Below are positions 23 through 37,224 of a stretch of DNA of 56,227 nt, piece by piece. Source of the stretch: Psammoneis japonica (Eukaryota); the NCBI GenBank assembly GCA_008632985.1, contig QPGO01000211.1, positions 62,001 through 118,227 of the forward strand, in the 5' to 3' direction. The notes beneath the pieces were generated by a model. The model was not told the DNA's origin, made no database searches, and saw nothing but the letters and a program-made list of their open reading frames with translations. The translations under genes and the position numbers were made by a program. The first letter of the stretch is position 1; each line of letters begins with the position of its first letter.

Positions 23-3000
23 CTAATTTCCCCAGTATTCTTTCCACCCGTCTTCCCCGCTGGTCTCCTTAGTTATTGTCTCGGACTCTTCCTGCGCTAG
101 TTCCGATGCACCTTCATCATTGTTGGATGCGTCTGACCTACTAGTGCCACCTTCAACTTCACTCTTACCCACCGGGTGGACCAGACCGTATTTCGTCAAT
201 GTCTGGAAGTTGTGAACTTGATCTTTGGGCAGCACATTATCTGGATGGCGTGGCACTTCTTCACTACTAGGACCAGGAACTTCAAAGTCCTTTGCGACAT
301 CAGCATTGTCCTTCATGGAAGCCAAATCTTTGTATGTATCCGAAATTTCTTCGATACCCACACCACTTGACCAGCTTTTTTGATCGCGATATGACCGTCT
401 CGCCGCAGCCTCTTCCTCTTGAGAAGCATATCCCAGCCATTTGCGTCGGTCCGTTCCTTCTTCATGGCCATCTTCCTCCTTCACTGGGGCTGGGCCCTCC
501 AAGCTGTCGCCACGGATTGTTTGCCATTTCGCACTGCAGTGGATTTCACGAACCTCAAAGATTCTCTTCACAAACACGCCAATCTCTCGGCTTGCGCTTG
601 GCGCTAAACCTTGTTGGACAGGCTTATGCGAAATCGCAATGGCGCTTTGCCGAAAGCGAGAGACTGACACAAGGCGGTCCTTTAGTACATTGTAACATGT
701 ACTTTGCGGCGTAATCATGAGAAGAGACTTGAGCATTCGAAAAAGCATGGCGCCGCTACCCTCGTCGTCTGCATCTCTGTCCCATTCCAGCATGCGCAAG
801 TGAAGATGCCGAAAGAGAGGCCGTTCCAATAGCTCCACCAACTGATCAAGCTCCAGCAAGAACATGAGATTGATTTCCAGCGGGTTAATGTTATACAGAA
901 ATGTGGATGCCGTCCGAAAGGCTCCACCCCAAAGACAAAGGGACACCGTAGATACTGCGTTGTGTGCGAAAGAGTGCAGGATAATGTGAAATAATCTGGC
1001 GCGACGACTGTCATATTCGCTTTCCGTTCGTGATCCAATGCAGTCCAAGAGAACGTTGCGCAGTTCTTGAGCTTCTTCCGCGTTGAGCAAGACAAAACTC
1101 ATTTGCTGCACGAACGACGAGAGAAATTCCAGGTCCTTGGAAAAGGACCTCATGTCGTCGCTGTCAGGTTTTCTCCTCGTCGTGTTCCGCCTAAGCATTT
1201 GTCTCTTTGTTCGGGCTTTGGCGAAACTATCTAACTCCAAAGCAAAGGACACAAACACAAATTCTGGTGGTTGTAGCGTGCACATGAACTGAACGACACG
1301 CGAAAGGGCCGATAGGAGGCCGTCATTGTATGAATGGAGGCGAATCAACGCCGAAAAAACCTCCCTGTCGCGAGACATGGAAAGTTGTCGGTCCGGGTCC
1401 ATAACGTCAAGCGCAAATGTTGCATCTTCATTGCTCATGGGATAACTTCCACTACGACCTTCGTCCCTGGCATTCTGCGACTCTACGGATGACTTCACCG
1501 ATTCACCGGGCGCTGGTACAGTGATGCGCGCAAGGACCTGCAAACTCTTGAAAATAATGGGCTCGGGTGGATTGTCCACTAGCTGATCGATAATGGGTGT
1601 AATGAACTCTCGTGCGTACTTTATACGAGTCAAAGAAAAAGCAGACAAAGCGAGAGTTAGGAACAGCCAACACTACATACACAATTTTGCGTGTGGTATC
1701 TTGCTCACCTCCGCTTTCAATACGTTCGGAACAACGCTGTCGTACAGTACAATGACCCACTCAAGGGCGCATTGCCGAGACATCATCACCGCCTCTTTTC
1801 CCCTTATGGTTGATCCGTCTTCCTTTGAGGAGCTTTTGTTTATCGCGATAGTATCTTTCTTGCCGCCTGTGGGAGGAGCAGGAGGAGCCGAGCTACGGAA
1901 CCACCCAGTGCTTTCGATCCCGGACCCGTCCTGTTTCACATCCATACGATACGGTTTGCGTTCAACCGCAGGAGGATTGCGCCCGGAAAGACCACCAGGA
2001 GAGTCCAGTTCTTCTCTAAGGGCAACAATGAAGCCATCCAAGTGAGACACATAAGCCGGCCCATCCCGACGGACGGCATCTTGCAAGCACGCATTGGTTT
2101 GTTCAGCTAGCGATCGGGTAGTTTGATCAGGTAGAAACGAATCCTTGGTTGTTGAGCGATTTTCAAATGCATCCCCAATGCTGTAGCAAAAGAACGGTGG
2201 GCATGAGACGCATATACGCAATAAACGATGGCGCAAAATCTAGAGACAAGCATTGCTCTCACCTCAATAAGATTCCTGGCAGCACGTGAGGTAGCGAGTT
2301 TCGGACCGAAATGGAAGCTGCTGTCAAGTGTGGCGTGGATTCAATGCCCGCTTTGGTATCAATGTCATCTCTTATATCGTTGTTCCCCATGTGTGCTTTG
2401 ACAATCCGTGACATCCAATACATGGCGACTTTGCGTACAAACGGATCTGGATGTTCCATGGTGGTGACGAGTGATTGTAAAATCTTGTCAAAATCAACCT
2501 TGGTCACAATGGAGGTATCCTCTGATGATTGAAAATCTTTCTGATGAATAACTAGTAGCTTGGGTAAGACCGACTGCAAAAACGCCAAGGCTGACTGTCG
2601 AATGACAATATGAGGATCAGCAACCATGGCAAAGACACCTCCCAAAAATAGATGCAAGAACTCAAGTATAGGGGCTCCCTCCAACTTTTCCGATAATTCT
2701 TGCAGCCACGTTAGTGTCAATTGTTTGGTGGCCTTGTTGGGCATGGACACAAACCGAGCAAAGACAGGAACGCACGCGTCTGCCGAAAAGTTTCCACTAT
2801 TGATGGCACCAACAATCACTTCCTTGAGTTTCTTGTCCAATAACTCAGCACCGCTTCGTACATCAATATCAACGTCGGCATAGAGCGACCTTAAAATCTC
2901 AAACAAGATAAAGAAATGCTGCACAGCAAATGTCGGAATCACCTTGATAATGTTGAATAGCGATTCGGTCGCGTAGTACCGAACACGGGATGAATGATCT

Positions 3001-3962
3001 TGGCAAGCGTGGAGCACGGACGTAAGAATCAATTCGCGGCATTCTTGCACCATGGCGTTTTTGCCCGATGCCTTTTTCAGACCAATTGCACACGCAGCCA
3101 AGGCTACAACACCACCCTTGCGGGCATCTTCCGACACGGATCGGACGTAATCATCACTCAATAACAACAGAATTGCACGAATACGTTCCAATTCCCCCGT
3201 CTGCACCAGGGATCGCACTACTTTTTCAATCTCCATGGCTGCCAATCGACGTCGTTCGTATCGTTTGTGTGCTAGACTGACCAGAACGGCTGCAGATATA
3301 GATTGCTGGAAGCTCCGTTTCATGGACTCGCGTTCTTGGAGAGTAGTTCCATCCTGAGCATCGTCCTCTACTCCACTTACTTCGGCTAACTTCATCATGT
3401 CGGAGTCAAATAAGGTTAGTGATTCGATTTTTTGACGCATCGTCATGAGAACATCAGGCAAGACACCTTCGCTCAAGTCTTCTGGTTTGGGGCGGATTGT
3501 GCCGGCGCCCGATGCTCGATGCGGCGACTGAGCGCGTGTTGTTCCTGAAATTAGATCCTGTCGTTGCTTCTGTTGTTGTAGGGACAAGTTTGCATCGGAC
3601 GCAAAAGAAGTTGTTGCACTGCCAGCTTCACTCATTGCCTCGTCCACAACATTGGATTCGGCACGTACTAGGAACGGATCAAAAGTAGCAGAACCCTTAT
3701 GCGGAACACCATCACTTGTTTTCAACGCCTTATCAAACTCTGACTGCGGTTTGGCTTCTGAATTATCACTCACTGATTCATCGTAGTCGTCACCAGAGGA
3801 AGAAGAAGAGCTGCTAAAAGCGTCCTCGCTCCGCGCTGCTCGGCGCCTCGAAGTCACTACATGAGGACTCGGTACAGGTGATACGTCAGAAATTTCATAA
3901 GACTCGGTAGTCACTTCTACCAGGTCGTTGTCGTCACTGTCTTCACTGTTGCTCTCACTCAT
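23..3962 (-). CDS. VAC14: VAC14 homolog (HEAT-repeat scaffold of the PIKfyve/Fab1-Fig4 complex), 3 exons
   Basis: Vac14 motifs LAHKRYERRRLAAMEIEKVV, ARKGGVVALAACAIGL, SRVRYYATESLFNIIK and C-terminal LDQLVELLERPLFRHLHLRML. GT-AG introns 2181-2262 and 1619-1708 join the three ORFs in frame. Confidence 0.93.
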
Positions 3963-8299: not shown

Positions 8300-8576
8300 G
8301 GTGCCATTTTTTTGGCGCGAGTTGAAGGCGAACCCGCAACTCTCAGCACCCGCCCGAGCACCACACCATCATTGTCCTCTCCACAACCCCACTCTAGTGG
8401 TGTGCACCACATGTTACATTCCAAAGCTGGGGAGTGGCAGCACAAGAGCCCATGTCTCCCAGCTGCAGGTGTTCAGAGGGTGACAAACTTCTGCCCTCAC
8501 TCTTCTCTCATCTTTTGAGCAGTGGAAACAATCGCCAACACACCGAACGTGCGGTGGTGTGCACAAACGTTGTGTG

Positions 8577-8607
<31 letters not shown>

Positions 8608-9396
8608 GGGGGTGCGCAGCCTCAACACTTTGTTGATGGCCCCAGAAGCCAACACCCCCTCTGACTGCCAAACACTGCACTGCAGAGTGGGGAGAGAAAA
8701 AAGTTCTCAGCTCCCTGGAACATTTTGATGCCATCATCAAACAACTTGTTTTGCCTTCTGCTGGCAACAAAAGACAGGGCTTCAGCAGGAGGGCACACTC
8801 ATGCCCAACATGGTGAAAAACAAAAACCTTTGTGTCAACAAGTGGTGCAACCTGCTGGGTGGTGGGCAAGCATCACATTCTGTGTCCTTTCCACCCCCGC
8901 GGTTTCTTGTTTCTCACACAGAGCCGGATATGAAGGCTGAGAGGAGGCTGCACATTTTCTTGAGCTAGCACTGCTCACAGTTTCTGGTGAGTGTCTCCTT
9001 GGAGTCTGGACCAAGTTTTGTGAAGTGCAGCTCTTGGATGCCGCCCTTCAAGAGTTTGAAGATCCTCTCCCTTTCCTCCACACATCAAATGAAGCAAGAT
9101 CCCTCAAATGGTTGAGTCAAGCCAACAGCAGCCAGCTGACATCCTTTTCACCATGTGCCAGCACATGCAACATTTCTTGCCACCACCATCCAAGGCATGT
9201 GTGTCACTGATGTGCTCACCCTGGCCATTTTCACAGTGGAGGGCTGCTGCAGCACACAATTGGAGGTCCAAAAGTTCAAAAAGTTCCCAAGTGGTCTGCA
9301 CAACAGTCAGTGGAGAGCAGCAGCACATGATTTCTGTGCACCTTCACAGTCACCCAGAATCATGAGAAAAATGTTGTCATGATGGAGGCATCTGCT
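8300..9396. repeat. TpA-void, TG/CA-rich tract (probable decayed TE remnant) containing a (GT)n-G22 run at 8572-8612
   Basis: About 4 TpA in 1.1 kb by hand count, CpG also sparse, only short Cys/His-rich ORFs; family not recognised. Confidence 0.55.
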
Positions 9397-9683
9397 CTAG
9401 AGAGCGTCCGCATTGTCCCAGGGAAACGACAGCCAAGACTGTGTGCCAATCAAGTTTGTTGTCGTGGGCACAGGAAAAGGGCAAAGGTCGGCGGTTCCGA
9501 AACCCAAGGTGGACGCACTAGGCAGAAAAGATAAGATACGATACGACGACAGCTGCAGCTCTGACATTTTCGAAAAGCTATTTTGACGTCGTATCGACTT
9601 TATCATAAATCTCGACACATGCTATAAATTTTTCGTCTTACTGGAACATACACCACTGCTGCAGATAATGGTCTACTGCGACC

Positions 9684-11363: not shown

Positions 11364-11599
11364 GGTCGACTCCAATTTTTATGTGAACATCATCGCCGCG
11401 CCAGCCCAAGGCCAAATTTTTGAATCCTTTGTTTCGCGCCTTTTTTGCTTCCAAGTGACAGATCATAAAAAGCTTAGAATGCGAATATTATTATATGATG
11501 TTTCGATTGCGTCAATGTCGTCATTGCAAGTTGGTTCGGTGCTTCGGTCGAGCAGGTGTGGGGCCGGCCTACATCACCGCTTGTGATAGATCTTACCTA

Positions 11600-13290
11600 C
11601 CTGGTTTGTCGGGGGAAGCTGCTGCCCCCTGTGACCGTGTGCAACGGTGCTCATCAGCCAGTGGCACTCCCAACATGGGAGGTCTGTGATGTGTGAGCCA
11701 GTGGCGCCCGTGCCAAAGAGACATCCTCAGCCAGCAGGATGTGCTGCTGGTGAAATGACACATGTTCACACCAGGCGGGCAGTTGGAACAAAAGACCCTT
11801 GCCCCCCCCTGCAACCCTCCTCCATCTCCAGCTGGTCTCACACCAGCTGCAGAGGACAGCAGCCAATCTGCTCTTCTGCAGTGCGCAGACAGTGATTGCA
11901 GATCTAAAGTTTTTTAACACTGGCGGCAGGTCCAGCCAATTGACAAGTGGCCCACAGTGACAAAATTTGCTGCCAGTGCCTGCCATGTTTTGACCCAGTG
12001 CCCTCTTTTTGTTGCAAAACACAGTGGCAAAATTGACTCTGTTCCGCCCAGGTTGATGCCCAGATGACAAAGAACAGCTTTGCTCTGGCTCGTTCACGAA
12101 GTTTTGCTGTGCACACTTTTTTCATGATCCGTTGCCCTTTGAAGCAAATTGTTCCAACCTCAGCTGCCAAATCTTGTGTGGCAACTGAGACAAGCAAAAG
12201 CAGCTGCAAGCTTTCCCTTTTCTCTCAAATTTTCAAGGGTGGTTGCAGGCTGAGCATTCCTCCATGTGAGTTGCCCAGTTTGTGAGGGGGGCAACGATGT
12301 TCCCAAATTCCCAATGAGTTTGATTTCGGCAGGCTCTCGGCCCATTGCTCTTGTTGTTGTTGGGGTGACCATGCCGCTTTCACACACAGGACAATGCACA
12401 AGCAAGCTCAGCAAGCTTGACCTTTGAGGGTGTTGGATGCTGTTGAAACAGAGAATTGCCAGGTGTTGTTGCAGAAAAAGAAGATTAAACATGAAATGCA
12501 CTGGCGAGATGAACAAGCATTTGCCAGATCTTAACTTTTGTGCCAGGAGCCACAGCTCACTTCTGTGTGCTGCACAATGTGTGATGTGGTTTTTTCCAAC
12601 ATGCCAGCATGATGAAACTTGACTGGACTGTGAAACATGCGATGCCCCAACTTGTCGTTTGTGTTGCCATCCTCACACAAGCACCTGGGTGCAATTCAAG
12701 AGATGACATGCTGATGGGATTGGCTGAGATGCAGTCACCAGGAAGCAGTGCAAAAGATCAAGCTGAGGAGAGCTCTCATCCAGTCATTCTGGAGATGGAG
12801 ATGGTGTTTCCCTGCTGCCAACGACCTGCAGATGGAGTTGGTGGGCAAGGGCATCCAAGGGCAGTTCTCCCCAACAAGAAGTGTGCTTCTTTTTCTGTTA
12901 AAAATTGCAACCTCCAAGAGTTCCATGAGTGTCTCCCTTGGGTGTGAGCATCTCATGACCAACCAATTTGCCACTCACTGGAATCCAAGAAAATGGTGCC
13001 AGCAGCCACCTCTGCAGTCCACACTCTCTGTGTTGGAAATGCACACCCATCCTCCTGTGCTTGGGTCAGCAAAGACAGCTGCCCGTTCTGCTGTCCACAA
13101 GCTGCCAATGTTCTCGCCTCAATGCAGTGATTCTAGCCACCACCCCATTTGAGAGCAGCAGACCGTTTTTGGCTGTTCCAGCTTGGCCGGGCGATTGCGT
13201 CAACCGCAGAATCATTGCCACTATGGCCACAGCATTGCACAGCTTGTGTGAAATTTTTGAGTGGAGAAATGAGGCCTGTTCATGTGTCAT
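11600..13290. repeat. TpA-void, CpG-poor tract (probable decayed TE remnant)
   Basis: Six TpA in 11601-13200, all in YTAR context; no intact ORF; termini not identified. Confidence 0.6.
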
Positions 13291-13427
13291 TGTAAAGTTT
13301 TTAAATGTAGGCAGCACCTTGTTGTGCCAACAAATTAAGAACAGAGACTAAACTGACACGGGACCATCGTAGAAGTCGGCACATCTGGAACCTTCATCCA
13401 TTGCACGGATTGAAGAGCCATCGATGT

Positions 13428-16400
13428 CTAAAGATTCTGTGTTCTCGGGAAAGCACCACAGTGGAAAGCACATGTCTTCCGCAAATTTTTGTGCCATTCC
13501 TTAGTGCTGCGAAAGCGTGAATCCAACGTAAGAAAGGACAAGTCATCAGATTCCATGGAGGTTGTAGAACGAACCGTCACGTCGCTCAAGGGCACACCTG
13601 TTGGAGACTTCTTGTAAACAAGAGGTGGGCACATTCCCGACTCTGCAGGTTTTTCAGGTTCTATGCAAGGTTCATTCTCAAGAACAGTCGAGAGCGGTTG
13701 TGGTTTTACCGGGCCCTTTCGACGAGGATTCAACGATCCAACAGAAGTCAACCACTTGCGCATGCTTTTTCTGCTTTTACTCCCGTTCCTCGCGTCTCGT
13801 TCGGAATTTTCCTCTACCTCGTTGCTTGGTGAACTTTCGATGACGACTTCTACAGGTGCACTTGACATGAGATTCTTGGTGCTGCAGACTTCTGAAATCT
13901 CATTCGACGATGATTTCTTCGCAGTGGACGATGAAGCCACACCTCCCCGAGAAATGTCATTGCCTGTTGTGCATAAAACGGTGCCTTTTCTGGCATTTGC
14001 GCCATCTGCACTTGGTGTGACATCGATGCCAAACTCACACAGACCTGCCGTTGTGTCAATTTGTTGCACCGAGATGTTCTGCTCCTTGAGATGAGAAGAG
14101 TTGTCGTCATGAACCACCCCAAGCGCAGTGGTGTCAACAACTTCGCCGCGGTCAACCTCAAAGCCAGATTTGGGGAAGGTTGTGGTGGAATGGTGGTCAT
14201 TCGTCTGATTGTGCTCCCCCAAATCACCCCGGGAAATGCTTTTCCGTTCGTTTGATGCAAACGCATCATCACCCACAACGGAAGTGGGACCATTGCGCGC
14301 AGTTGAGCCAGTGCCTGGCTGGTCCGAATCTTGCGAACCAGGGCGAGTAAAACACTGGCTTCCGTTGCTTGCCGATTCGGCGTCGCGCCCAGAACTGAAC
14401 GACATTGAATCCAGATTAGCTTCTTTAGCTGCGCCGAGTGGTACGGAAGAAAAGAAGCCGTCGTAATCGGACTCCTGTTGCTCCGATGATTTGTCCGCTT
14501 TGGCCGGTGCAGCTTCGTCACCTAGAGAATTGCCATGGTTCGCGGTGCATTCAACAACCTCATTGCTTGTGGGAACATCTGCGCCATCGACACTTGGCGT
14601 GATGCGTGGAGCTAGTGACTGGTCAGGCCCCTGATCAGAGGCCTCGTGAATCTTGGGCTTAGCACCGTCGTCTATGTCCTCTCCAAACGCAACACCATCA
14701 TCGCGGTCAATCTCAAAGCAAGCTTCGGGCAAGCCTGTTGAGAACTTGTCATTTGCATGGTTCAACTCAGCTACATCACCCCGGGAAACGTAACTCCATT
14801 CGATTGACTCAAGCCCATCATCATCCATGACGGATGCAGGACCATCTGGGGCAGCTGAGCCAGTGTCTGGCCCTTGCGCACCAGGCAGAATTAAAGCAGA
14901 CGCAACCCGCTGGCTTACTTTGCCTCCCGCCACTGAGGCTTCACACCCAGAACTGAACAAAAAGGAACTCACAACGGCTTTTTCAGCTGCGCCCAACGGT
15001 GTGGAAGCAGAGACTTCATCATCCCCAGACTCCTGCTGCGATGATTCCTTCGGGCTGGGCGATGCAGCTTCGTCACCCTTGGTCCTGCCGCGGTCTGTTT
15101 CAGCGACATCATCCCTCATTTTCACATCTGTGCTGTCGACACTTGGTGTGATGTCGATGCCAATTTCGCATGAAGCTGGTGAATGGTCAATCCGCTCCAC
15201 AAGGGCGCTGCACTTCTTGGGATTGTAGCCATGGTCGTGAACCTCCGCAAGCGCATTTGTGTCGACAACCTCTTCGTCACGGCCAATCTCAAGGCCAGCT
15301 TCGGGTGTGGCAGATGCCAACTCGTTGTCATTTGTTCGATCCAACTCATCTGATGCAGCTCCCTGGGAAACGCCGTTGCGCCCGATTGATGACACCACAT
15401 TGTCGCCATCCTCAAGTGTGACATCGATGCCAACTTCACAGGGACCAAGCATCGGATCAACCCCTTGCACAGAGGCATTGTGCTTCTTGGGATTGTAACC
15501 CCCGTTGCGAACAAACCCAAACGCAGTTGTGTCGACAACCTCATCGCGGTCAACCTCAAATCCAGCCTCAGACGAGGCTGTTTCCAGCCGCGTGTCACTC
15601 GTTCGATTCAACTGAGATGCAGCTCCCTTGGTGGAGTCATTCCACCCACCATCATCAGCCACATTACCAGATGCAGCACGTGTGACCTCATCCGTGTGTG
15701 CACCGGCGCTGTTGGACACTCCAATGTCTGAATTGCTTGGCTCTTGAGCGTTCAGGTTGGAAAACGCCGTTGCAATCCATTGACTTAATCCACTCATCTT
15801 CAGTGATTCGTCACTTGACTCATGCGCGTTGCCTTGCGGTGCAATTGGCCCCGTGGTGCAATGGGCTTCTGATGGGCTTGTTTTCGGTGATTTAAATCCA
15901 GACAGCACAGTTGCAAGCCATTGATTTTGTTTGCTGGCATGCCAGGATTCAATGCTGTCATCGACAACCGGTGACGAGTAAATTTCGTCTGAAGCTTCGT
16001 GTCCTTTTGAGATTTGCAGCAAAGCCCATTCATCAACTTGTTTGTTCACTCGTGTCGCGCTTTCATGAGCGTTGCCTTGTGTTGCACTTGGCCGCGTGGC
16101 GTTGTGGGCTTCTGACGGGCTTGACTTCGGTGATTGAAGTCCAGACAGTGCAGTTGCCAGCCATTGGCTCTGTTTGCTGGTTCCCCAGGATTCAACGTCT
16201 TCATCGACAACTGGTGCCGAGTGACCTTCGCCAGGAGCGTCATCTCCTTTTGAGATTTGAAGCAAAGCCCCTTTATCACCCTGTTTGTTCGCTCGCACCG
16301 TGTCCTCTTGCGCTTCCTTTTCCAAAGCAGAAGGAGTTTCGGACGCACTTGGTTCTGGCAAACGATGCGTCTTGTCTGCTTCTTGACCCGCCTCAGTCTT

Positions 16401-18490
16401 TTCAAACACAGGACCAATGATGTTGGGGAACAGCTTGGACATCATTGAAGACGGAGCAGTCTCCTCCTTTTCTTCGGTTGGTTCAATGTTCTTGACGATG
16501 CTTTTCGATTTAGACGCAGTGATCTTGCGTCGGGCTTGCACCGCTACGACAACCTCTGCTTGGACAAAGAGCTTTGCAATTCCACTTGATCTCATTCCCC
16601 TGCAGTCAACACCATTTGTGGCCAACAACTCGTCACCGGCCTTCAGAGTTTTGGAGAACATCCCACCTTCGATAACGCGGGAAACCATCAATTGTCCACC
16701 GGAAATTCTCTTTACAGAAATGCCACTTTTGGACGTCTTGGCTTCTTTGAGGGCAATGGCTGCGATTTTCTGGTGGGAAGGTTGATCTTCGGGTTCAACA
16801 CGGCTTGGATTCACTGGATTGCCCAAAGGCGGCGCTCTGCACGATCCAAGTCTTGCCAGCGACTTTGATCCAAAAGAACGCATCTTTGATCGTTTCTTCA
16901 GCAACATCTGGAGCGATTCATTGCTGCGCTCAATCTTGAGCCCCTGATTGACTTCCATGGAGTTCACTTTGCCACTTGATTTCGAGCCATCATCGCCCAC
17001 AATCGTGTCGGGCGCCTTCTTTTTCTTCCACCTAAAAGACGACCTTGCTCGAAATGGGAGAATTCCCCGTTCTGCCTGTGCGGAGCTTGTTGCGAATCCG
17101 AATCGATCACAATTTCGTGTCCCGCCGCATCAGCAAGGCGGTCGAATTCACCATCCCGTTTCGGCTGAGATGTGTTACGAGATTCGTCTTCCTCGCTCTG
17201 TCCTCCGCTCGCCTCTACCGGAGCATCACTCTTGTCAGTGTCGCTTGGTCCTTGGCTCCCAGAAATGCCTTGGTGAACGCTCGCTTCAACACCTTCATCC
17301 AAGACACATGGCTTGTCTTTGGACGTCGCAATGGCTGCGGTTTTCTGGTGGGAAGAGTGATCTTCGGGTTCAACATGGCTTGGATTCGCTGGATTGTCCA
17401 AAGACGGCGCTCTGCGCGATCCAAGTCTTGCCAGCGACTTAGATCCAAAAGAACGCATCTTTGATCGTTTTTTCTGTGACATCTGGAGCGATTCATTGCT
17501 GCGCTCAATCTCGAGCCCCTGATTGACTTCCACGGAGTCCACTTTGCCACTTGATTTCGAGCTGTCATCGCCCACAATCGTGTCGGACGCCTTCTTTTTC
17601 TTCCACCTAAAAGACGACCTTGCTCGAAACAGGGGGATTCCCCGTTCTGCCTTTAGCGGAGCTTCTTTCGAATCCGGATCGATCACAATTTCGTGTCCCT
17701 CCATGTCATGAAGGCGGTCGAATTCACCATTTCGTTTCGGCTGAGATGCACTGCGAGATTCATCTTCCTCGCTCTCTCCTCCGCTCGCCTCTGCCGGAGT
17801 GTCACTCTTGTCAGCACCGCTTGCTCCTTGGCTCCTGGAAACACCCTGGTGAATGCTCGCTTCAACACATTCATCCAAGACACATGGCTCGTCTGGCTGT
17901 TGGAATGACTCTTCATCAATGTTTGACAGCTCACTGTTTGATGGAGGCTCTGAGTTCACGCTGCGATCTTTCTTCCTCTCCAAGGCAACATCCCGTTTCG
18001 GCCGAGATGCATTGCGAGATTCGTCTTCCTCGCTCTCTCCCCCGCTCGCCTCCACCGAAGCATCACTCTTGTCGGCATCGCTTGCTCTTTGGCGCCCCGA
18101 AACACCCTGGTGAACGGTTGCTTCAACACCTTCATCCAAGACACATGGCTCGTCTGGCTTTCGGAATGACTCTTCATCAATGTTTGACAGCTTGCCATTT
18201 GGTGGAGGCCCTGAGTTCACGCTTCGAACTTTCTTCCTCTCCAAGGCAACAACAACCGTCGCTTCGTTGGGCCCCTCTCCTGGTGCTTTCTCCTCCGTCA
18301 GGGGAGACGAGTCATGCACCAGGCTTTCGATCGATGAGTTGTTGCTGGTGGTCGTACGCTGCTGCATTTCTTGGGAAAGCAGAGGCCAGGTCGTCGCTTT
18401 TGTGGCGCTCAGATCACACTGAGCCCCACTCACCAAATAACAATCAACCTCCTCTACTTCCGATTCGTCGTTCCCTCCTTCAATCGTCAT
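13428..18490 (-). CDS. Large internally repetitive protein with a PDZ-like domain; one frameshift near 17078
   Basis: ORFs 16964-18490 and 13428-17000 are joined by a 1-nt deletion visible against the duplicate copy (ttctgcctttagcgg at ~17645 vs ttctgcctgtgcgg at ~17070). PDZ-like segment KSGISVKRISGGQLMVSRVIEGGMFSKTLKAGDELLATNGVDC lies at ~16520-16770. Several internal repeat modules are present. Confidence 0.7.
16760..18250. repeat. Recent intragenic duplications (about 540-600-bp and 240-bp offsets) within the PDZ gene
   Basis: KPCVLDEGVEA...ASGGESEEDESR module x3, ALERKK..SVNS..LSNIDEESF x2, and GDDSSKSSGKV...RSFGSKSLARLGS x2; near-identical at the nucleotide level. Confidence 0.9.
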
Positions 18491-18899
18491 CGTACAGCAT
18501 CAGATGAGCATCCCGCCGTCGCCGTCTGCTCATGAGTTTATGAGCTTGCCGAATAGCCGCCAAAAACCTTTCCGTTCAAGATAAATGTAATAATTCGAGA
18601 TTAATTTTAATTATAAGTTATTAACATCTATGATTACTAATAATATGATCTTAGAAAATTTTTGTCTCTATCAAAAATATAGATGAAATGTTTTTTCAAA
18701 AAAGTCATATTCCTATAAGAGCTTTAGGATAACCAATATTTCCCCCAACGTAAACCTGTCCCGGGTGGACGAACAAAGGTCTGGCTGTGCGTGCGTGGCG
18801 GCGTGGGCATCCTTGTGAGTCGTCTACCGGCACATCCGAACAAACAACAAAAATCAGCATCATTCCCACTCAAGTCTGCTCTCTGCTCTCTCTCTAGAG

Positions 18900-21050
18900 A
18901 GACTGCAGTGCAGAACCATCCCGCACCACACACACTGGCCCAGCACGTGGCACTGGAGCCATTGTCAAGTCATGAGAAGTGTTTCTGAAAACGGCCACAG
19001 ACGCCCTGGAAGCACCCTCACAAAAGCACCGCCACTCCAACAAACAGCATGAGCACGCTCCAGCATTAGAGGCGGGTGCTAAACCTGGAGGACCTCAAAT
19101 GTTGTTGCAGTGCAAGCACCAAACAGCTGNNNNNNNNNNNNNNNNNNNNNNNNNNNNNNNNNNNNNNNNNNNNNNNNNNNNNNNNNNNNNNNNNNNNNNN
19201 NNNNNNNNNNNNNNNNNNNNNNNNNNNNNNNNNNNNNNNNNNNNNNNNNNNNNNNNNNNNNNNNNNNNNNNNNNNNNNNNNNNNNNNNNNNNNNNNNNNN
19301 NNNNNNNNNNNNNNNNNNNNNNNNNNNNNNNNNNNNNNNNNNNNNNNNNNNNNNNNNNNNNNNNNNNNNNNNNNNNNNNNNNNNNNNNNNNNNNNNNNNN
19401 NNNNNNNNNNNNNNNNNNNNNNNNNNNNNNNNNNNNNNNNNNNNNNNNNNNNNNNNNNNNNNNNNNGGGGGGGGGGGGTCTTGCTTGGTGCACCAGCTGC
19501 AGAGCTCATGCACCAAATTTGGCCACCAGAAAATGGCCCACTGAGTTTCCCAACTGGAAGCTGTGCCAGGATGTGCAAGAAGTCTTTCAGCAGCAGCTGT
19601 TGTTGTTCTGTGGAAACATGTGAGATCACAACAAAATCTTGAGGAATGCACTCTGAACTTCCTCAGGACAAACACACATTTGCTGGAAAAGAGATTGTCT
19701 TCCATGTTGTTCCCAGTGCCAAGAGCCTCAAGCTGCTGTCATGACACACTGCCACCCAGACAGACACAAAAACCAGGGCTGGGTTGACAAAGGAGTTGCC
19801 AAGATCAAAGATCAAAGAATCCAAACAAAAGGCATTCAAGTGCATGTGGGAGCTGTTGGAAGCAAAAGAGAGCATTTCTAAAATTTCAAGCAAGTTTCAG
19901 CAAAAGAGGCAGTGGGGCTGTTCTTGGGGCTCTTTGGTGCATGGTGTTGCTTTTCAAAATTGCCAATGCAAACACCACTGCCCCTCAGAAGGTGCCAGCA
20001 CTTTCCCAGCAGTTCAGGGGGGCTTGACCAGCTCACACAAAACACTCGACACACATCAAAAATGAGAAGTTGAATCAAAGTGCAGGAAAATCAGACAATC
20101 ATGCAAGGCTGTGACCTGCCAGAATGCCAATGGATGACAATGGAAGTTGGGAAAAGAGGCTTCCTCCTGAGTGCTGGGAGACAGTGTGACACATCTGGTG
20201 GAACAGAACAAACAAAAAGATCTCACATGGATGACTCAAATGTCCAAAAGGTTTCTGGCTGTCATGCACAAATTTGGTCTGTTTGCTGCATCCCCTGCAG
20301 ACTCAGTCATGGGCTGGCTTTTCATTTTTTTTGTGGCTCAGGTTCTTTTGGCTTTGTGAGTGGCAGCTGAAAACACAGCTGCGCTTCTTGCGGATGGAAT
20401 GACAGCGCTTGTTGAGTTTTTGTCAGAGCGAAAGCACTGTTGTGAAGAAGTTGCAATGGAAAATGGTCGGGATGTTGGACCATGGAGCACTTGAGTTAAT
20501 CAACAATGCATGTTGCAGAGAATCGAAATTGTTCATCACACTGCATGACTCTTGCAGCTCTGTTGTTGGCTTTTTTGTCAATTTTCCTGCCATGCCCCCA
20601 GAAGGAAAAATCCCACAAGAATCTCCCAGAAATCAAAGGATTGCATCAGAAGCAGCGTGCCACAAAGCACAATGATGCCGCTGAACCAAATGCACATTTC
20701 AACGCTTGCAAGTTGTCACCTTGTGCTCTTGCTCTGCCAACCAGCACACACTGGTGCTGCTTGCAAGGTGGTGTGTTGGTTTTGACTGGGTCCTTGAACC
20801 CGAATCACAACCTGGTGAGGCTCCCTTCTCTCTTTATTCTCCTTCCTTCCATTCCCTCTCTCTTTTCCTTTTCTTCTTCTCAGTTGTCCTTTTTGCACTT
20901 CAACATCCAAATCCAAAAATCTCACGGGGGGCGCTTGAAAGCTGAGTGATGGACACCACGCACAGACGGGCGACGGACGACACGCGGCGGAAAAATCTCG
21001 TGTCGTCCCGCGAGGATGATGATGATTCATTCCAGATGATTCGCCATTCG
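18900..21050. repeat. TpA-void tract spanning an assembly gap (probable decayed TE remnant)
   Basis: Three TpA in 19467-21080; CpG sparse up to ~20900; no intact ORF. Confidence 0.55.
19130..19466. other. Assembly gap (N run)
   Basis: Run of n characters followed by a poly-G tract. Confidence 1.
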
Positions 21051-21111
21051 CCATCAACCCTCCATTTGCCTCCATCGATCTTCCTATTTTCGAAGCTTTT
21101 CAATTGTTCAA

Positions 21112-21972
21112 ATGATGCGATCTCCGTCCTTATCTAAAGCGTTGTCCTCCCCACGACGCTTATCTAGACGCTTGTTTTGTTGGACAGCTGCGGCAGCGTT
21201 GACATCCTCATACGCGTTCGCTCCTACTTTGCCCCAAAGCAACCGCGTGATTGCACACCCGACATTACAACCGCTAGGAGGAGCGACGTTGTCAAGATCT
21301 CAGCATCAGACGCTCCGTCTCTATGCTTCCAGGAAGGGTAATGATAGCTTCCTAGGAAAGGCAGCAGACACAGTCAAAAGTCTTCTTCCAAAGAATTTGT
21401 TTAAATCCAAAGAAGAGAAAAAAGCAGAACTCGCCAGAAAGCAAATGAAGAACGAAATCAAAGGCGGATTGAAAGAAATTCTCAAAGATGCCCCACTTCC
21501 AGTCAGAATGATGGGTTCCATGATTGCTCCACTGGTATCTGGTATGGCTTCGACACTCGCTGAATCCGTGGGCGAACAGCAACGCCAAATGTCAGAATTA
21601 CTGGACGATGCCCGAACCTTTATTGTGCGCGACACTGCTGCAACAAAAGCTCTGGGTGAACCCATTGTTGTGCAGTCACCCTTTTCACAAAGCTCCAGCA
21701 CTACAAACATTAATGGTAAAATGACATCACAAATCCAAGCATCCTTTCCCGTTCAGGGGTATTTCCAAAACGGGTCTGCCACCATGACTGCAAACGAGCA
21801 AGGAATTACTCGGCTTGTGTTACATGTGGCTGGCAGAAGCTACAACATTGATGTTTCGGACAAAGGTGGTGATACTGGAGGTGGCTACACGGAAAGGTTA
21901 GGAAGAAACCCAATGAATAAGGATGACATTATCGACGTTGAATTTGTCGAGAAAGACGTCGAGAAAAAGTAG
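21112..21972 (+). CDS. Predicted plastid-targeted protein of unknown function (possible Coa1/Tim21-like C-terminal region)
   Basis: SSYA|FAP matches the diatom ASAFAP cleavage motif and is followed by an S/T/R-rich transit-like stretch. The ALGEPIVV...ASFPVQG segment is only loosely Coa1-like. Confidence 0.75.
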   Translation: MMRSPSLSKALSSPRRLSRRLFCWTAAAALTSSYAFAPTLPQSNRVIAHPTLQPLGGATLSRSQHQTLRLYASRKGNDSFLGKAADTVKSLLPKNLFKSKEEKKAELARKQMKNEIKGGLKEILKDAPLPVRMMGSMIAPLVSGMASTLAESVGEQQRQMSELLDDARTFIVRDTAATKALGEPIVVQSPFSQSSSTTNINGKMTSQIQASFPVQGYFQNGSATMTANEQGITRLVLHVAGRSYNIDVSDKGGDTGGGYTERLGRNPMNKDDIIDVEFVEKDVEKK

Positions 21973-22088
21973 AAGCTACTTAAGTAGGCAGAGACTCATG
22001 AAGAATCTGTGTTGTGTATTTGTCGAGAAAGACGTCGAGAAAAAGTAGAAGCTAGAGTGAGAGACTCATGAAGAGTTTGTGTTGTGTA
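21942..22088 (+). repeat. About 76-bp tandem duplication spanning the stop codon
   Basis: atttgtcgagaaagacgtcgagaaaaagtagaagcta...gagactcatgaaga..tgtgttgtgta at 21942 and 22018. Confidence 0.95.
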
Positions 22089-22140
22089 AGACTATCCTTT
22101 GATATTTAATTGATTGTACTCTCTAGAGCCATAACTCTCT

Positions 22141-23489
22141 CTATTTAATCATTGAGATGCTATAGGCACTGTAAGCTTCGTCTTCTTTATGTAAGCGTCT
22201 GTCCACGTCCAAGAATGGGGGCAAATGTACTTTGGCTTGCTCGTCACCCGACGATTCGACTTGGGCGTGGAGAATGCAAATGTCAGATACAGGCTCTTCA
22301 TATTCCTGTTTCCGAGTCATAAATCATATTATTAAGGAGTGAGTTTGAGAAAGCAACCACGAGTGCGATTATATGCACTTGCAACAGGTAGATTAATCGA
22401 TTGATTGATTCTCGAAACACTTACATGAATGGAAAAGCTCTGCAAATGGTACAAGAAGCAGATTCGTCGCTGCCGAATAATGTGCCGCTTCAAGTCGCGT
22501 GTTTTGACAGCTGCGAGATACTCGCGACTGCTGATGATACGCTTCACCTCAATTTCCTTGTCGTCTTTGGTCACTTGAGCCGCGGTGAAACCATACACGG
22601 ATCCACCACGAGTGCCATCGCTTCTAATAATGGTTCGTTTCCGTACAAAGCTATACTCCTCCTTGAAGGGTGAAGAATCATCTACTTGTGCATCGACATG
22701 CACCAAGTACACCTTTTCAACTTCAAACACATGAATGTCAACACCGTGTTGTTGAACCAGCGCTTCAACGTCAGGTTTGCAGCGCAACAAGAACTTGGTC
22801 GTGACGCGTCTCAAATTGGAAGGTAGCCCAACCAGTTTGCTCACAGCATTCACCAACTTTTGTAGTTTAGGTTCAAAAGCTGTGGAATTATCAATGACAG
22901 TCAGTTTGGGGTGGCCCACCCATGCTTTTTGTGTCTTGAGATCCACTTCAACAGCTTCATCCGCAGTCTCACTTCTTGCTGCGTTATTGTCTAGCGTGTA
23001 AAACTCACGTGCTCCATTGGCTGCGGTCAACAGGTGGTACACAGCGTTGTATCGGCCCTCGCGAATATCAGTCACATCTATATTGCGGGATTCCAACAAC
23101 TGATTCCACTTGGCGGGGTCCATGTACGCCGACCCATCCATGATTCCTCGATCACAAAGCAACACGGCTGGTTTGCCACGTGCTCGGAGGACTCGTTCCA
23201 ACCCGTCTTCCATGGATGTTTGAACCGAAATGACTGTACCTTGAATGATTAAATCCATGCCGTCTGTTGAAAAATAATCGAGAGACAGTCCGTTTGACGC
23301 TAGAATCGTAAACACTTCGGGACACGTAATCACTTCAAAGCCACGCTCTCGGAGATACGACGAAACACGTTCCAACGCGGTTGTCTTTCCTCCACACGGA
23401 CCACCCGTCAACACAATTCTATAAAAAGGTGCCTTTGCACCATTGATGTTGTTCTCCGCCTCTGTTTCTTGCTTTGCATCGCCGTTCAT
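22141..23489 (-). CDS. TTD14-like P-loop NTPase (AAA_28/NadR-type) with CYTH-like C-terminal region, 2 exons
   Basis: RIVLTGGPCGGKTT Walker A, LLCDRGIMDGSAY, YTLDNNAARSET and AWVGHP. Intron 22306-22424 leads to a last exon EYEEPV...LPPFLDV...YSAYSISMIK*. Confidence 0.85.
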
Positions 23490-23758
23490 GGTGGAGTTGA
23501 TGAAGAGGGAGGACTTTCAGTTTGACACCTCATTGCCATACTATCGTACTGCTAACAACCAACAACAATTTCAACGTGTCGGTCCGTCGGGTCGATCGAG
23601 CGTGATGATTCGCGCGATTCAGTCAAATGACTCGGTGACTTGTGCAGCTTATTCGAGCTTTGCGGTTCACTCGACGACGACTCTCTAGAGTAGAGAGCTA
23701 GAGAGTAGAAGCTAAGGTCCTCTATTAGAGGGGCACCAAAGGCCATCTGAATGGATTC

Positions 23759-24233
23759 GCTGGAGCAGCTCTGGCGTGGGAGGTAAATTACCTTGCTCTA
23801 AAAAAAAAAAAACCTGCTGGTGCTTCCAGGCACACTCTGCCGCAGCACTTTTTGCGCTGCACCACATCATTTTATCATTTTGCACCACAAAGAGCTCAAC
23901 TCCTGCTGCACTGTTTGCTGGAGCAGCTCTGGCATGGGAGGCAAATCACCTTGCTCTAAAAAAATCACCAGCAACCTGCTGGTGCTTCCAGGCACACTCT
24001 GCTGCAGCACTTTTTGCGCCACACCACACCATTTTGTCATGTTGCACCACAAAGAGCTCAGCTCCAACTGCACTGTTTGCTGGAGCAGCTCTGGCGTGGG
24101 AGATAAATCACCTTGCTCTAAAAAAATCAACCTGCTGGTGCTTCCAGGCACACTCTGCCGCAGCACTTTTTGCGCTGCACCACATCATTTTGTGTCGTTT
24201 TGCACCACAAAGAGCTCCAATCCAACTGCACTG
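23759..24233 (+). repeat. Tandem array of three ~160-bp units at the start of a TpA-poor tract that runs to ~24780
   Basis: Units start gctggagcagctctggc at 23759, 23917 and 24079. Confidence 0.95.
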
Positions 24234-24865
24234 CTTGCAACTTTGCACCCCCATGTTGGGAGCCCCATTGTAACTTTTTGGCGCAGATCGGAGACCAATG
24301 AGATGCAGTGGTCTGTGCCTCCCCCCTGTGTGAGTGGGGGGTTGTTTTTGCGATCTGCTTTGCGACGCTGCTCACATCGCAGAAGCAGTGCATGAGTCTA
24401 CAAGCACCATTTGAGTCACAGCAAACTCACTCTTTTTCTTCATCAATGTTGCACTGCACGTTGATGAGACGAGAGAGCGAGTTTCGTTTGCAGCCTGCAC
24501 AGCCCACCCTTTGCGGCTCTCCAGCCAGAGCTCCAATTCCTGGTCCCCGGAATGGGAGCCCTCTAGCTCGAGGTCTGGTGCTCGTGGCCCATTCCACAAC
24601 CAACCAGAGTGCTCGACTAAGAGCGCATCAGACACGAGAGGAAGCAGAGTCGGCGAGCGACAAAGAGCAATCGACAATCGACACATCGATTGTCATGAAG
24701 TGCAGGTTGCACCGTGGGTGTGCGCGCTCCCACTCTCTGCACTCCCCCCGCCCTTGACAACTTCAACTTGCCCTCAAAAATAGATGTTCTCACCGCGCCA
24801 TGACAAAAACGCTTAGGCAAGTTCGTATTTCGTAACCTTACTGTGTTCTGAACATCTTGATTTTC

Positions 24866-26947
24866 ATGTTGGAACCAAGTGACAATGATGTATTGTTTGG
24901 AAGGGGAAAAGGCTCACGAGAGCACCTTGGCAACTGCGAATTTCTAAGGCTCGTCCGACGCTACAAGCATGCGTACCAGGATGCGAGCAACAGAAAGCAA
25001 AAGAACGACGTCGCACAGCTGATTCTAGGTGCAATTTACAGACGAAAGGGAAGATTCTTGGAAGCATCCGAGAAAACAGGCGAATGGGAACAAGTCAGTT
25101 CCGAAAAAGCACTCAAGAAAGTAAAGCAGGCGCTGAGAGAAAAGAGAAACTTGGATGCTGACACTGTGCAAGAATCACCCTCATTTTCTGCTGCAGAGAC
25201 TGCCAGCAACTACGGGTATCGTTCCTATAATATATTACATCAGCTTGGAGTCGTGATGCCTCCGCAGCCTCCGCAACCGAAAGCGTTTCCGTTTTCGACA
25301 ATGGCAGTGGAACAAAACATTTCACCGGCGCTGAATCATTTAGCGCAGATTCACGGTCTTCTCTCTCAACCCTTTGCAGCAACTGCTCCCGTGGCTCCAC
25401 CTATGGAGGCAAGGTCTTTTCACCCGGCACCCGCAAGCCACCTTGTGGTTCAGCCTTCATCAATGGGGTCTATGAGTGTTTACCACGCACTGCCACGTAC
25501 AAGCTCGATAAAACGAGACACGGTGTCTTCAGAGTCGCCTCGGGAGATTCGAAAACCTTCTCCATTCCGCGAGGAAGCTGCGAAAGGAAGGTTAAACGCG
25601 CCAAGTTCACTTTTACAGGAAAAGAAGCCACCGCAAGACCCACTTAGTCAACGCCCCATTATGCACACTGTTCCTCCAAGAGATTCGAAACAGAAGGAAG
25701 CACCGCCGCAGGTGATAGAGGAGGAGGCAACAGTTCAAAACATTATTCCTCAAGACAATCCTGATGCAACGCAAGAGCTGCAGAGAGAGATGTCTAATCG
25801 TCGTTTTGGAGGTGGGAGCCTATCCAAAATTTTTCGCAGCCTTGACGAAATGCAGCGGCTTCACGATGCCACTTTTAACAATAATGAACCCGATGATCGG
25901 CAACAGCAAGAGAGTAGAGCCCATGTCATTCCTCCTGAATCCTACGTATCCCTGACGAGTCAGGATATTGCGGCTGCTGAATTCTTGTTTACGTCCTTGA
26001 CGGAAGCTTCTACAAATCATCAAAAAGCAGATGATTTTGCCATTTCAGAAGAAGAGCAACGCACCGCCACACAAGATCTATTTGGAAAGTTACGCATATC
26101 GACGCCCCCTCCCACAAAGCGAATAAGACGTTGCAACAGTACGAGTGATGTCTCGTATTTGTTGGTAGAATTAAAGCGTCACCTGGATTCGATACCAGCA
26201 AGTGAAAAGAAAGCGTGGCTGGAGGCCCGTACCAAGGCTCGTGATGTAGAAATAAATGATCAGCGACTGGAATTGTTTTTGAAACGAGAAGATATGGACC
26301 CAGAGAAAGCAGCACATCGTTTCGTCAAGTACTGGGAAGAACGACGAAAATGGTTCGGATCCGACAAGTTCACATTGCCAATGGCTTTGGATGGGGCAGT
26401 GAAGGACGATAAAGAAGCTATTGAGGCAGGATTGTTTCGACTGCTTCCTTACTTGGATACTTCAGGGCGACAGTTGATGCAATGTTTCGCACGCATGAAT
26501 AACTATAAAGGGTACAATACAAAGAACATGACTCGGGCATATTGGTACATGTGCGAGGTGGCCGCCCAGCACCCAGGCGCTTCGGAGGGTATTGTGCGAT
26601 TGGTATGGATGAAAGGGGCGTCCCTTTTCGACACCGACCTAGAACTTGAGTGGAATATGGGGAATCTCGACGAAGCTGTTTTTCCCGTGCCTGTTCGCGG
26701 AACTCACGTGCTTCGCCTACCGTACGTAGTGTCAAAGTTCTTGAAACCAATTGGACTTGCTCAGCAGCCCAAGAGTAGTCGTTCCCGTATTGTTGTGCAT
26801 GATGTTGCCGAATCAAAGGTTGTGGAGACGCTTTCGAGCTATGGCATTTTCCAAAGTATGATTCCAATTAATATGGGTGGAACCTGTGAGTATGACCACA
26901 CGGAATGGTTAGAACGCAGAAGAGAAAAGGAAACGGAAAACGCTTGA
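24866..26947 (+). CDS. DUF6824-type N-terminal domain plus C-terminal CRAL-TRIO-like domain protein (diatom-expanded family)
   Basis: DVLFGRGK...HLGNCEFLRLV...GRFLE...WEQVSSEKALKKVKQALRE at the N terminus; LFLKREDMDPEKAAHRFVKYWEER, DTSGRQL and IPINMGGT at the C terminus. Confidence 0.85.
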   Translation: MLEPSDNDVLFGRGKGSREHLGNCEFLRLVRRYKHAYQDASNRKQKNDVAQLILGAIYRRKGRFLEASEKTGEWEQVSSEKALKKVKQALREKRNLDADTVQESPSFSAAETASNYGYRSYNILHQLGVVMPPQPPQPKAFPFSTMAVEQNISPALNHLAQIHGLLSQPFAATAPVAPPMEARSFHPAPASHLVVQPSSMGSMSVYHALPRTSSIKRDTVSSESPREIRKPSPFREEAAKGRLNAPSSLLQEKKPPQDPLSQRPIMHTVPPRDSKQKEAPPQVIEEEATVQNIIPQDNPDATQELQREMSNRRFGGGSLSKIFRSLDEMQRLHDATFNNNEPDDRQQQESRAHVIPPESYVSLTSQDIAAAEFLFTSLTEASTNHQKADDFAISEEEQRTATQDLFGKLRISTPPPTKRIRRCNSTSDVSYLLVELKRHLDSIPASEKKAWLEARTKARDVEINDQRLELFLKREDMDPEKAAHRFVKYWEERRKWFGSDKFTLPMALDGAVKDDKEAIEAGLFRLLPYLDTSGRQLMQCFARMNNYKGYNTKNMTRAYWYMCEVAAQHPGASEGIVRLVWMKGASLFDTDLELEWNMGNLDEAVFPVPVRGTHVLRLPYVVSKFLKPIGLAQQPKSSRSRIVVHDVAESKVVETLSSYGIFQSMIPINMGGTCEYDHTEWLERRREKETENA

Positions 26948-27534
26948 TGGAACGAAACTGGATATAAATCAGAAAGCGACCCCTGTTGTCGCGATTCGTC
27001 TTCGGAAAGACCTTACTCTTTCATGTGGCCTATTGCCACACTTGTTGCTGACAACGGGGGAACGATGAGCTCGCACCTAAAAGTGATGCTGCAGCGAGTT
27101 GGCCACAAGCTTACTAAGTTGTTGATGGAAAAGGTTATCGATGGCGAGGTTCTGGTACACGACTCACGAACGAGCGAGCGTGCGGTGTGTGCCTTGACGA
27201 TAGCAAAAGGACTGGATTAAAATGTTTATTGTATTTGCTTGTTTGGAAAAGTAACTACATTTGTTTAGCTGCTACTGAAAAGTTCCTCTAGCTTATAGAT
27301 TTTTGTTTTCTGCTGAATTCTTATGTCCACTCTTTTAGACTTCCGCTCTAGTAGCTAGTATTCGAAACTTATGATAGATATACTGGTGGCGATGAGCCTG
27401 AATGAATGCACGTTATGGTTGGACAAAGAGCATAGTAGAAAAACCTTAGCATATTGAATAACATTTACAAACAAAAATCGCTCATTTACAAATCAAAATC
27501 TCCTTCAGACTGCCGCGCTACTTATACCCAAATA

Positions 27535-30708: not shown

Positions 30709-30727
30709 AGGGTGTGGGGGGTGGGCA

Positions 30728-37203: not shown

Positions 37204-37224
37204 TTCTTCTGCTCCCCATGGGCT

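Follow-up and report, generated by a model that had tools for sequence, protein, structure and literature searches.

Why do the last TpA steps in a strongly TA-poor stretch of DNA all carry the same kind of outer bases? The question is raised by positions 11601 to 13200 of a 56,227-nucleotide stretch of Psammoneis japonica contig QPGO01000211.1. The whole of that stretch was analyzed and is called the window here. The interval contained exactly 6 TpA with 94.9 expected from base composition, an observed-to-expected ratio (o/e) of 0.06. Their T positions are 11905 (CTAA), 11915 (TTAA), 12486 (TTAA), 12532 (TTAA), 12899 (TTAA), and 13134 (CTAG). All six have a pyrimidine (Y) before the step and a purine (R) after it, written YTAR below. 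The recount agrees exactly with the first-pass annotation of this DNA, which had listed CTAA, four TTAA, and CTAG. Six YTAR in six would arise with a probability of 8e-4 if sites followed a first-order model of the composition of the TA-poor islands described below, and of 3.5e-5 with the background share. The interval also contained 26 CpG with 105 expected, and the o/e was 1.69 for CA and 1.80 for TG. AA and TT were not depleted (o/e of 1.25 and 1.24, compared with 1.20 window-wide). With a probability of about three in four, the six YTAR are what is left, decaying slowly, after a TpA-specific A:T-to-G:C hypermutation of repeated and silent DNA that works at the DNA level and has R-T-A-Y as its preferred target.

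The window contains five sharply bounded TA-poor islands. They were called by a two-state hidden Markov model segmentation on TA density alone. Flanking bases played no part in the segmentation, which keeps the context test from being circular. The islands contained 114 TA in 20,286 non-N bases, with 1104 expected from composition. The TA o/e was about 0.5 across the remaining 35.6 kb, where genes have ordinary TA content. CA and TG were in excess within the islands. The gain in TG equaled the gain in CA, which bears out the earlier proposal that either strand is hit. About nine-tenths of the TA steps in repeated DNA have been lost to TG or CA.

The surviving TA steps follow a flank rule. The islands retained 58 YTAR, 51 mixed sites (YTAY or RTAR), and 5 RTAY (n = 114). 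The rest of the window contained 249 YTAR, 719 mixed sites, and 406 RTAY (n = 1374), and the difference is large (chi2 = 80, p = 4e-18). The YTAR bias was present in every island. Island 1 (8416 to 9518) contained 3 TA with 62.8 expected, two of them YTAR and one RTAY. Island 2 (11599 to 13292) is non-coding and holds the interval that raised the question. It contained 7 TA with 101.8 expected, and 6 of the 7 were YTAR. Its CpG count was 27 with 109.9 expected, and an open reading frame (ORF) search of island 2 and of 11601 to 13200 returned nothing convincing. Island 3 (13852 to 18437, minus strand) contained 32 TA with 251.7 expected (13 YTAR, 17 mixed, 2 RTAY). Island 4 (18752 to 21084) is both TA-poor and CpG-poor and contained 7 TA, five YTAR and two mixed. 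It is interrupted by a 337-N assembly gap at 19130 to 19466. Island 5 (29229 to 40135, minus strand) is a multi-copy retroelement with its flanks. It contained 65 TA with 559.9 expected (32 YTAR, 31 mixed, 2 RTAY), in keeping with the earlier remark that YTAR survivors are common in the retroelement and RTAY nearly gone. Of the five RTAY survivors, two are at island edges (18355 and 29557) and one is in a later-inserted high-copy element (38464). A few survivors are one site seen in two repeat copies (e.g., 17033/17608 and 30557/31268), and their removal left the picture unchanged.

Survival was also expressed as TA/(TA + TG + CA) relative to the background. It was 0.24 to 0.58 for the four YTAR tetramers and 0.07 to 0.18 for the eight mixed tetramers. 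It was 0, 0, 0.039, and 0.041 for the four RTAY tetramers, two of which had no survivors. Each YTAR tetramer outsurvived each of the eight mixed tetramers after this normalization. The rule was graded with depletion. When 600-bp windows were grouped by their TA o/e, deeper depletion went with a YTAR share rising from 0.17-0.18 to 0.24, 0.30, 0.49, and 0.55 and with an RTAY share falling from 0.27-0.32 to 0.15, 0.03, and 0. An NTAN tabulation in repeats had been suggested earlier as a check. Made for the TA-poor islands of this window, it was non-uniform across flanking bases, which supports context dependence. The best survivors by 3' neighbor were NTAG and NTAA. The counts left were 18 of 371 for TAC, 11 of 364 for TAT, 46 of 351 for TAA, and 39 of 288 for TAG. 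TAC was not lost faster than TAT, so the likeness to the UAC/TA preference of TadA that the first-pass annotation had drawn is a weak analogy. Further out, T at -3 or A at +2 was enriched among survivors of all islands (0.39 compared with 0.26; p = 0.002, uncorrected for five positions). Protection may extend to T-Y-T-A-R-A.

The YTAR excess might instead reflect the ancestral composition of the repeats, or new TA arising from CA or TG, with no context-dependent mutation at all. Such a reading draws on the fact that the ancestral sequences of the repeats are only inferred. It is rejected by four baselines, the first of them the rest of the window as given above. Uniformity failed with a first-order Markov model of the islands' own composition (p = 4e-7) and with the background outside long ORFs (p = 2e-13). 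It also failed with a regeneration baseline, in which TA inherit the TG/CA contexts of the islands (p = 3e-10). The dose-response across the window also speaks against it. So does direct before-and-after evidence from the repeat-pair gradient, the A1/A2 pair, and the conserved-Tyr sites, given in the next two paragraphs. We regard it as highly improbable.

Repeat copies in the window differ mainly by transitions, many of them TA against TG or CA, or TG against CA at one site. Sites with identical flanks were tallied in repeat pairs. TA was kept in both copies at 6 sites of the form Y..R and at no other. It was lost in one copy at 5 YTAR, 10 mixed, and 2 RTAY sites. TG faced CA at 3 YTAR, 15 mixed, and 8 RTAY sites. 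The three-row table gave a chi2 of 20 (p = 5e-4), with one three-copy family entering twice. Older internal repeats (61 to 71% identity) were left out of the tallies; they held four doubtful events, mostly with changed flanks. The clearest pair is repeat A1 (40013 to 40258), which straddles the right edge of island 5, and its mutated copy A2 (30728 to 30973). A1 retains GTAC, CTAC, ATAG, and GTAC, and all four were converted in A2. CTAG and CTAA were kept in both. The pair thus lost two RTAY and two mixed sites and kept two YTAR. Repeat B2 (30261 to 30708) is 90% identical to B1 (30973 to 31419). The differences reported earlier between them are present (CTAG/CTGG, CTAG/CCAG twice, and TTAG/TCAG), together with GTAG/GCAG. 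With the survivor classes, they bear out the claim that YTAR still mutates, only more slowly. Three tandem 162-bp units (23756 to 24238) have intermediate TA depletion and were not called as an island. CTAA was kept in all of their copies, and mixed-context sites vary between copies.

The retroelement of island 5 gives before-and-after evidence of a second kind. Its frameshifted coding region (31536 to 36994, minus strand) was located by tblastn and has 76 homologs. It encodes a polyprotein of about 1300 to 1700 residues with a putative divergent reverse transcriptase. There are 13 columns with Tyr in at least half of 52 relatives. The element carries Tyr at none of them and reads His at 7, Cys at 3, Phe at 2, and Leu at 1. 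Across a related set of 11 Tyr-type columns, only 2 of the 52 relatives carry Cys, each at a single column. Tyr made up 0.2% of the element protein and 2.5% of the family. Ile (ATA) columns were considered as a second balanced reporter and gave a single usable site. The PDZ-ORF protein of island 3 was rejected as a Tyr reporter; it is a low-complexity repeat protein.

The flank rule was described with a two-parameter loss model in which the survival of xTAy is exp(-(k[x] + k[complement of y])). With a purine 5' of T the fitted k per flank was 1.74, and with a pyrimidine there it was 0.43, about a fourfold difference. A likelihood ratio test rejected uniform loss (chi2 = 83.5, p = 6e-20). The purine/pyrimidine half-site model fits the 16 tetramers (Pearson X2 = 10.9, df = 14, p = 0.69), and four base-specific parameters gave no improvement (p = 0.125). 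The rule is purely one of purine versus pyrimidine, with a weak extension one base further out. Estimated survival was about 41% for YTAR, about 12% for YTAY/RTAR, and about 2% for RTAY.

Which strand carries the rule? A pyrimidine at +1 on one strand is a purine at -2 on the other, so survivors cannot separate the two. Only the products at YTAY and RTAR discriminate. YTGY and RCAR are expected under a T-A-Y rule, YCAY and RTGR under the other form. Polarized events in repeat pairs, with one duplicate product site dropped, numbered 8 of the T-A-Y kind and 5 of the opposite kind. Sites with TA in other genomic copies gave 1 and 3. Tyr codons after a pyrimidine gave 3 Cys of the T-A-Y kind and 2 His of the opposite kind. 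Their Tyr ancestry is backed by the closest relatives, and 5 of the 18 listed columns were dropped as ambiguous. The total was 12 of the T-A-Y kind and 10 opposite, in which pair events may be partly mis-polarized by ordinary CA/TG to TA transitions that pull the ratio toward 1:1. A fourfold half-site bias predicts about 4:1, and the probability of 12 or fewer in 22 is 0.006. A firmly polarized subset of about 11 events gave about 6:5 (P = 0.05 under 4:1). The product ratio (YTGY+RCAR)/(YCAY+RTGR) was 0.98 and 1.05 in the two large islands, 648:648 when pooled.

Strand-coordinated clusters of A>G had also been proposed as a check, and none were detected in islands or repeat pairs. In repeat pairs there were no strand-coordinated runs, and the products were interleaved. 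Runs tests on TG/CA order gave z values of -1.9 to +1.3 in islands and -2.6 to -0.5 in the background and detected no clustering, at low power because most TG and CA are native. In this window the rule looks symmetric, R-TA-Y, with the changed strand not set by the flanks. The earlier T-A-Y over T-A-R rule therefore stands in part. Loss depends strongly on both outer bases; the T-A-Y direction, at 12 to 10, is not reproduced.

Some of the evidence pulls against the reading adopted here. All counts come from the single 56-kb window. Ancestral TA contexts are inferred from neighboring genes, from intergenic DNA, or from the islands' own TG/CA contexts. The symmetry claim is based on 22 polarized events, only about 11 of them firmly polarized. 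The three small non-coding islands each gave a product ratio within 1.26 to 1.64, as T-A-Y predicts. Pooled, it was 309:210, or 1.47, where T-A-Y predicts about 1.43 and symmetry predicts 1.11. The same ratio ranged from 0.83 to 1.38 in background 3-kb blocks, so tetramer composition is an ambiguous guide. The 51 mixed survivors exceed the additive prediction (about 47.5 as summed fitted values and 38.5 at class level) and fall short of the multiplicative prediction (about 64), so the form of the flank interaction is ambiguous. A palindromic dinucleotide is equally compatible with A or T as the attacked base, and the window sequence does not single out one enzyme or chemistry.

A strand-specific enzyme is the nearest alternative to symmetric reading. 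A TadA/ADAT-like adenine deaminase would edit A in 5'-T-A-Y-3' on an exposed strand, and the 5' purine effect would be the same preference viewed from the other strand. It fits the survivors as well as the symmetric rule does, the half-site rates being additive. The small-island product ratio lies near its prediction, and the repeat-pair events lean its way. The T immediately 5' of the edited A fits as well, only TpA being depleted. The base editor ABE8e A48E is described as preferring YAC in the accessible part of its source (PMC13109818). The overall direction and the firm subset make 4:1 unlikely, and the even products of the large islands and the missing preference for C over T at +1 also count against it. 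The sections available of another paper (PMC10354150) report that an amphioxus ADAT2 (BjADAT2) prefers GAA on DNA and that adenine base editors (ABEs) are broadly context-compatible. Hairpin loops were the best substrate there (PMC10354150), whereas about 90% of all TA were converted here. We consider this enzyme possible and doubtful.

A symmetric rule has its own candidate explanation. The mutator might read the 4-bp palindrome R-T-A-Y in duplex DNA, with equal flanks and a random choice of strand, in a restriction-modification-like or DddA-like manner, and would either convert adenine itself or mark it for later conversion. We put this forward tentatively and think it rather unlikely. Duplex-palindrome reading is typical of restriction-modification methyltransferases.

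A modified base might also come first. An enzyme that reads palindromic R-T-A-Y in the duplex would lay down either N6-methyladenine (6mA), lost as hypoxanthine, or a thymine oxidized to 5-hydroxymethyluracil or 5-formyluracil that mispairs with G. The site is a 4-bp palindrome, its two flanks count about equally, and the changed strand looks random, all of which suit this route. The missing strand-coordinated TG/CA runs suit it too. In dinoflagellates, 5-hydroxymethyluracil is said to favor TpA and TpC. In protists 6mA is reported at ApT, not TpA, which counts against the route. The modified base is purely putative in the window, and a four-base single-strand motif R-T-A-Y would yield the same counts. 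We judge this route unlikely.

Does the process act on DNA or on an RNA intermediate? The mutated tract of island 5 reaches about 0.7 kb beyond the leftmost repeat at one end and stops within A1 at the other. Other DNA was hit as well: a stretch that is not a retroelement, ORF-internal tandem repeats, and a short element of high copy number. The tract edge inside A1 excludes an element-wide RNA route for that copy. Together with the non-retroelement targets, it places the action on chromosomal DNA rather than on an RNA intermediate. The hypermutation is at the DNA level and after insertion. An ADAR-like enzyme might have edited retroelement transcripts, with the edits fixed by reverse transcription. 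Its 5' U preference and the fact that the largest island is a retroelement agree with that. The mutated tracts ignore element borders and include targets of other kinds, the short element among them being non-coding. The hot spot of ADAR2 is 5'-UAG in the part of PMC10661471 that was available, yet here 39 of 288 TAG were left and only 11 of 364 TAT. We give the RNA-editing route almost no credence. ADARs are not known to occur outside animals.

A repair-based route was also weighed. Error-prone patch repair of the polymerase-eta type at WA could start, for example, from T:G mismatches left in silent DNA by the deamination of methyl-CpG. A>G at TA belongs to the polymerase eta WA spectrum, and two islands have also lost most of their CpG. 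WA includes AA, yet AA and TT are undepleted. The CpG o/e of islands 3 and 5 was still 0.87 and 0.71 after a loss of about 88% of TA, and the loss is near-saturating and purely by transitions. Patch repair is very unlikely on these grounds.

We propose the following process. TA is rewritten to TG or CA on either strand of repeated or silent DNA. Both outer neighbors set the chance of loss, with a purine 5' of T (equivalently, a pyrimidine 3' of A) raising the loss exponent about fourfold per flank. The preferred target may best be written as the palindrome R-T-A-Y. The agent would be a base-modifying enzyme recruited to repeats, most simply a DNA adenine deaminase that turns A into inosine, which is read as G. 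Such an enzyme might contact about four bases. Alternatively, its access may depend on the local duplex, alternating R-Y-R-Y being easy and Y-Y-R-R hard. With moderate confidence we take deamination of adenine in DNA to be the most economical chemistry that the pattern suggests.

The target of the process appears to be particular DNA. Repetitiveness was seen for island 5 (multi-copy) and for island 3 (tandem repeats). Island 3 spans the internally repeated part of a long ORF (13428 to 17129, with a PDZ hit) and the adjoining tandem repeats. This ORF of 1233 amino acids (aa) is TA-depleted only where it is internally repeated, and its non-repeated end (13428 to 13850) has normal TA. The pattern suggests that repetition itself, not transposon identity, attracts the process. 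Depletion in island 3 is deepest at the most alike repeats (15000 to 18300), where CpG is nearly normal. TA loss and CpG loss are uncoupled across islands. The CpG o/e was 0.25 and 0.36 in islands 2 and 4 and 0.87 and 0.71 in islands 3 and 5, with similar TA loss.

Island 5 was also examined with reads. Two runs of one sample were compared with 20136 to 40135; of the 2946 differing places only about 40 were listed, which is not enough to tabulate changes by context. The island is multi-copy, with a summed contig depth of 255 to 3014, compared with about 55 to 89 in most single-copy bins. In run X2 the genes were covered and the island bins were without cover; no inference was drawn from this. 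The 76 polyprotein homologs are about 1250 to 1700 aa long, with a best identity of 45%, and their sources include the diatom Cylindrotheca. RVT_1 was matched weakly by 6 of 25 family members (best E = 3e-4). The family consensus carries YVDD, DAS, and TDNS, which we take to be reverse transcriptase and RNase H motifs. A look-alike cluster in the Atlas is named RT RNase H-like and serves as a lead only. Pfam gave no match above threshold for the island 5 ORFs or four homologs. A PDB sequence search with the family profile and a homology search with the ORF at 38319 to 40010 each gave no match. A scan of viral contigs for relatives of the element protein gave 41 pattern matches, none of them confirmed. 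The repeats of the element are laid out as B2-A2-B1 ... A1. We take this layout to resemble the split direct repeats of DIRS/Ngaro-type elements. Judged from these sequence features, the element is probably a very divergent DIRS/Ngaro-like retroelement.

A very high-copy short element of about 370 bases (38145 to 38515) is inserted in island 5. Its depth was about 1e5, roughly a thousandfold the single-copy contig depth, and loose ends lie at 38145 and 38516. It contains 9 TA and is less depleted. Several of its TG and CA are TA in most other copies. It is a later insertion into the older mutated element and has been only partly converted. It reads TCGA at 38342 to 38345, where TTAA is found in most other copies, with T at 38343 and A at 38344. 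A single TA seems to have changed at both of its bases there, which is at odds with a strictly TpA-dependent single hit. A metagenome scan with an unchanged 20-base stretch of this element gave 4 loci, AT-rich, with ordinary TA and without similarity to the window, which were chance matches.

The window as a whole is gene-dense eukaryotic DNA. Its long ORFs include ones with Vac14, CLC channel, homoserine dehydrogenase/ACT, CRAL-TRIO, and DUF6824 matches.

What does the rule add? The new results here are a flank rule quantified against four baselines, its dose-response, and before-and-after evidence from repeats and Tyr codons. The strand-specific T-A-Y form was not reproduced in the window, which is also new. 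Any candidate enzyme would have to show the flank rule in vitro or in a heterologous host, so the rule can serve as a fingerprint. In this window it already speaks against routes of the ADAR and polymerase-eta kinds, and also against a TadA-like enzyme that simply reads UAC. For annotation and dating, repeat decay can be modeled with YTAR as a slow clock and RTAY as a fast clock. The many copies of the element at 38145 to 38515 are ideal data for per-site mutation rates. If symmetric, duplex-type reading is true, the agent would be a natural A-to-G editor of double-stranded DNA, a eukaryotic genome-defense enzyme with no described counterpart.

The literature was searched for TpA hypermutation, dinucleotide bias in diatom transposable elements, and adenine deamination of transposons. 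Only one preprint found by this search describes the process. In the parts of it available, Mettrop et al. (bioRxiv 10.64898/2026.01.13.699255) report TpA-only A>G/T>C in integrated giant-virus and virophage DNA of Bigelowiella natans mutation-accumulation lines. The lines yielded 231 de novo TpA mutations. The authors propose a DNA adenine deaminase, and the main text, in which the words 'context', 'flanking', 'trinucleotide', and 'tetranucleotide' do not occur, states no flanking-base rule (bioRxiv 10.64898/2026.01.13.699255). The two cases share TpG and CpA products on either strand, a restriction to foreign or repeat DNA, and long-term TpA depletion with an excess of CpA and TpG. The trait is present here as A:T-to-G:C transitions confined to TpA and as conserved Tyr turned into His or Cys. 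The hosts differ, a chlorarachniophyte there and a diatom-like stramenopile here. By the available account, the process was measured in lines there; here it is inferred from sequence.

Better-known deaminases match only in part. ADARs share the change of A to I, the 5' U preference, and the targeting of repeats. They prefer a 3' G (5'-UAG in the accessible text of PMC10661471), whereas TAG is protected here, and they act on RNA, whereas the domains here are DNA. APOBEC3/AID enzymes are a DNA deaminase defense that leaves a short context fingerprint in retroelements (PMC4866542, as far as available), and a short fingerprint is also what is seen here. They act on cytosine in DNA that is single-stranded in the course of reverse transcription or transcription, and their C to T changes fall in strand-coordinated clusters. 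In the islands A:T becomes G:C instead, and no coordinated runs were detected.

The tRNA deaminases TadA and ADAT2-ADAT3 also deaminate adenine with U or T 5' of the target. In their tRNA substrate, U33-A34 places U 5' of the target, and native TadA reads U-A-C-G. Here TAC equals TAT, and the purine at -2 counts as much as the pyrimidine at +1. BjADAT2, described as the only natural ADAT2 shown to deaminate adenine in DNA, prefers GAA, and the editors ABE7.10, ABEmax, and ABE8e are said to accept adenine in a broad range of contexts (PMC10354150, in the sections available).

The likeness in overall behavior is to repeat-induced point mutation (RIP) in fungi. Neurospora and other Pezizomycotina change C to T at CpA in the sexual phase, with a cytosine-methyltransferase-like protein. 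RIP and the process described here are both repeat-directed and dinucleotide-specific, with a graded neighbor preference. Both act on both strands, have sharp borders, and destroy coding capacity. The lineages differ, and so does the outcome. RIP adds TpA and makes DNA AT-rich; the process seen here removes TpA and raises GC. A repeat-directed TpA eraser would be the chemical mirror image of fungal RIP.

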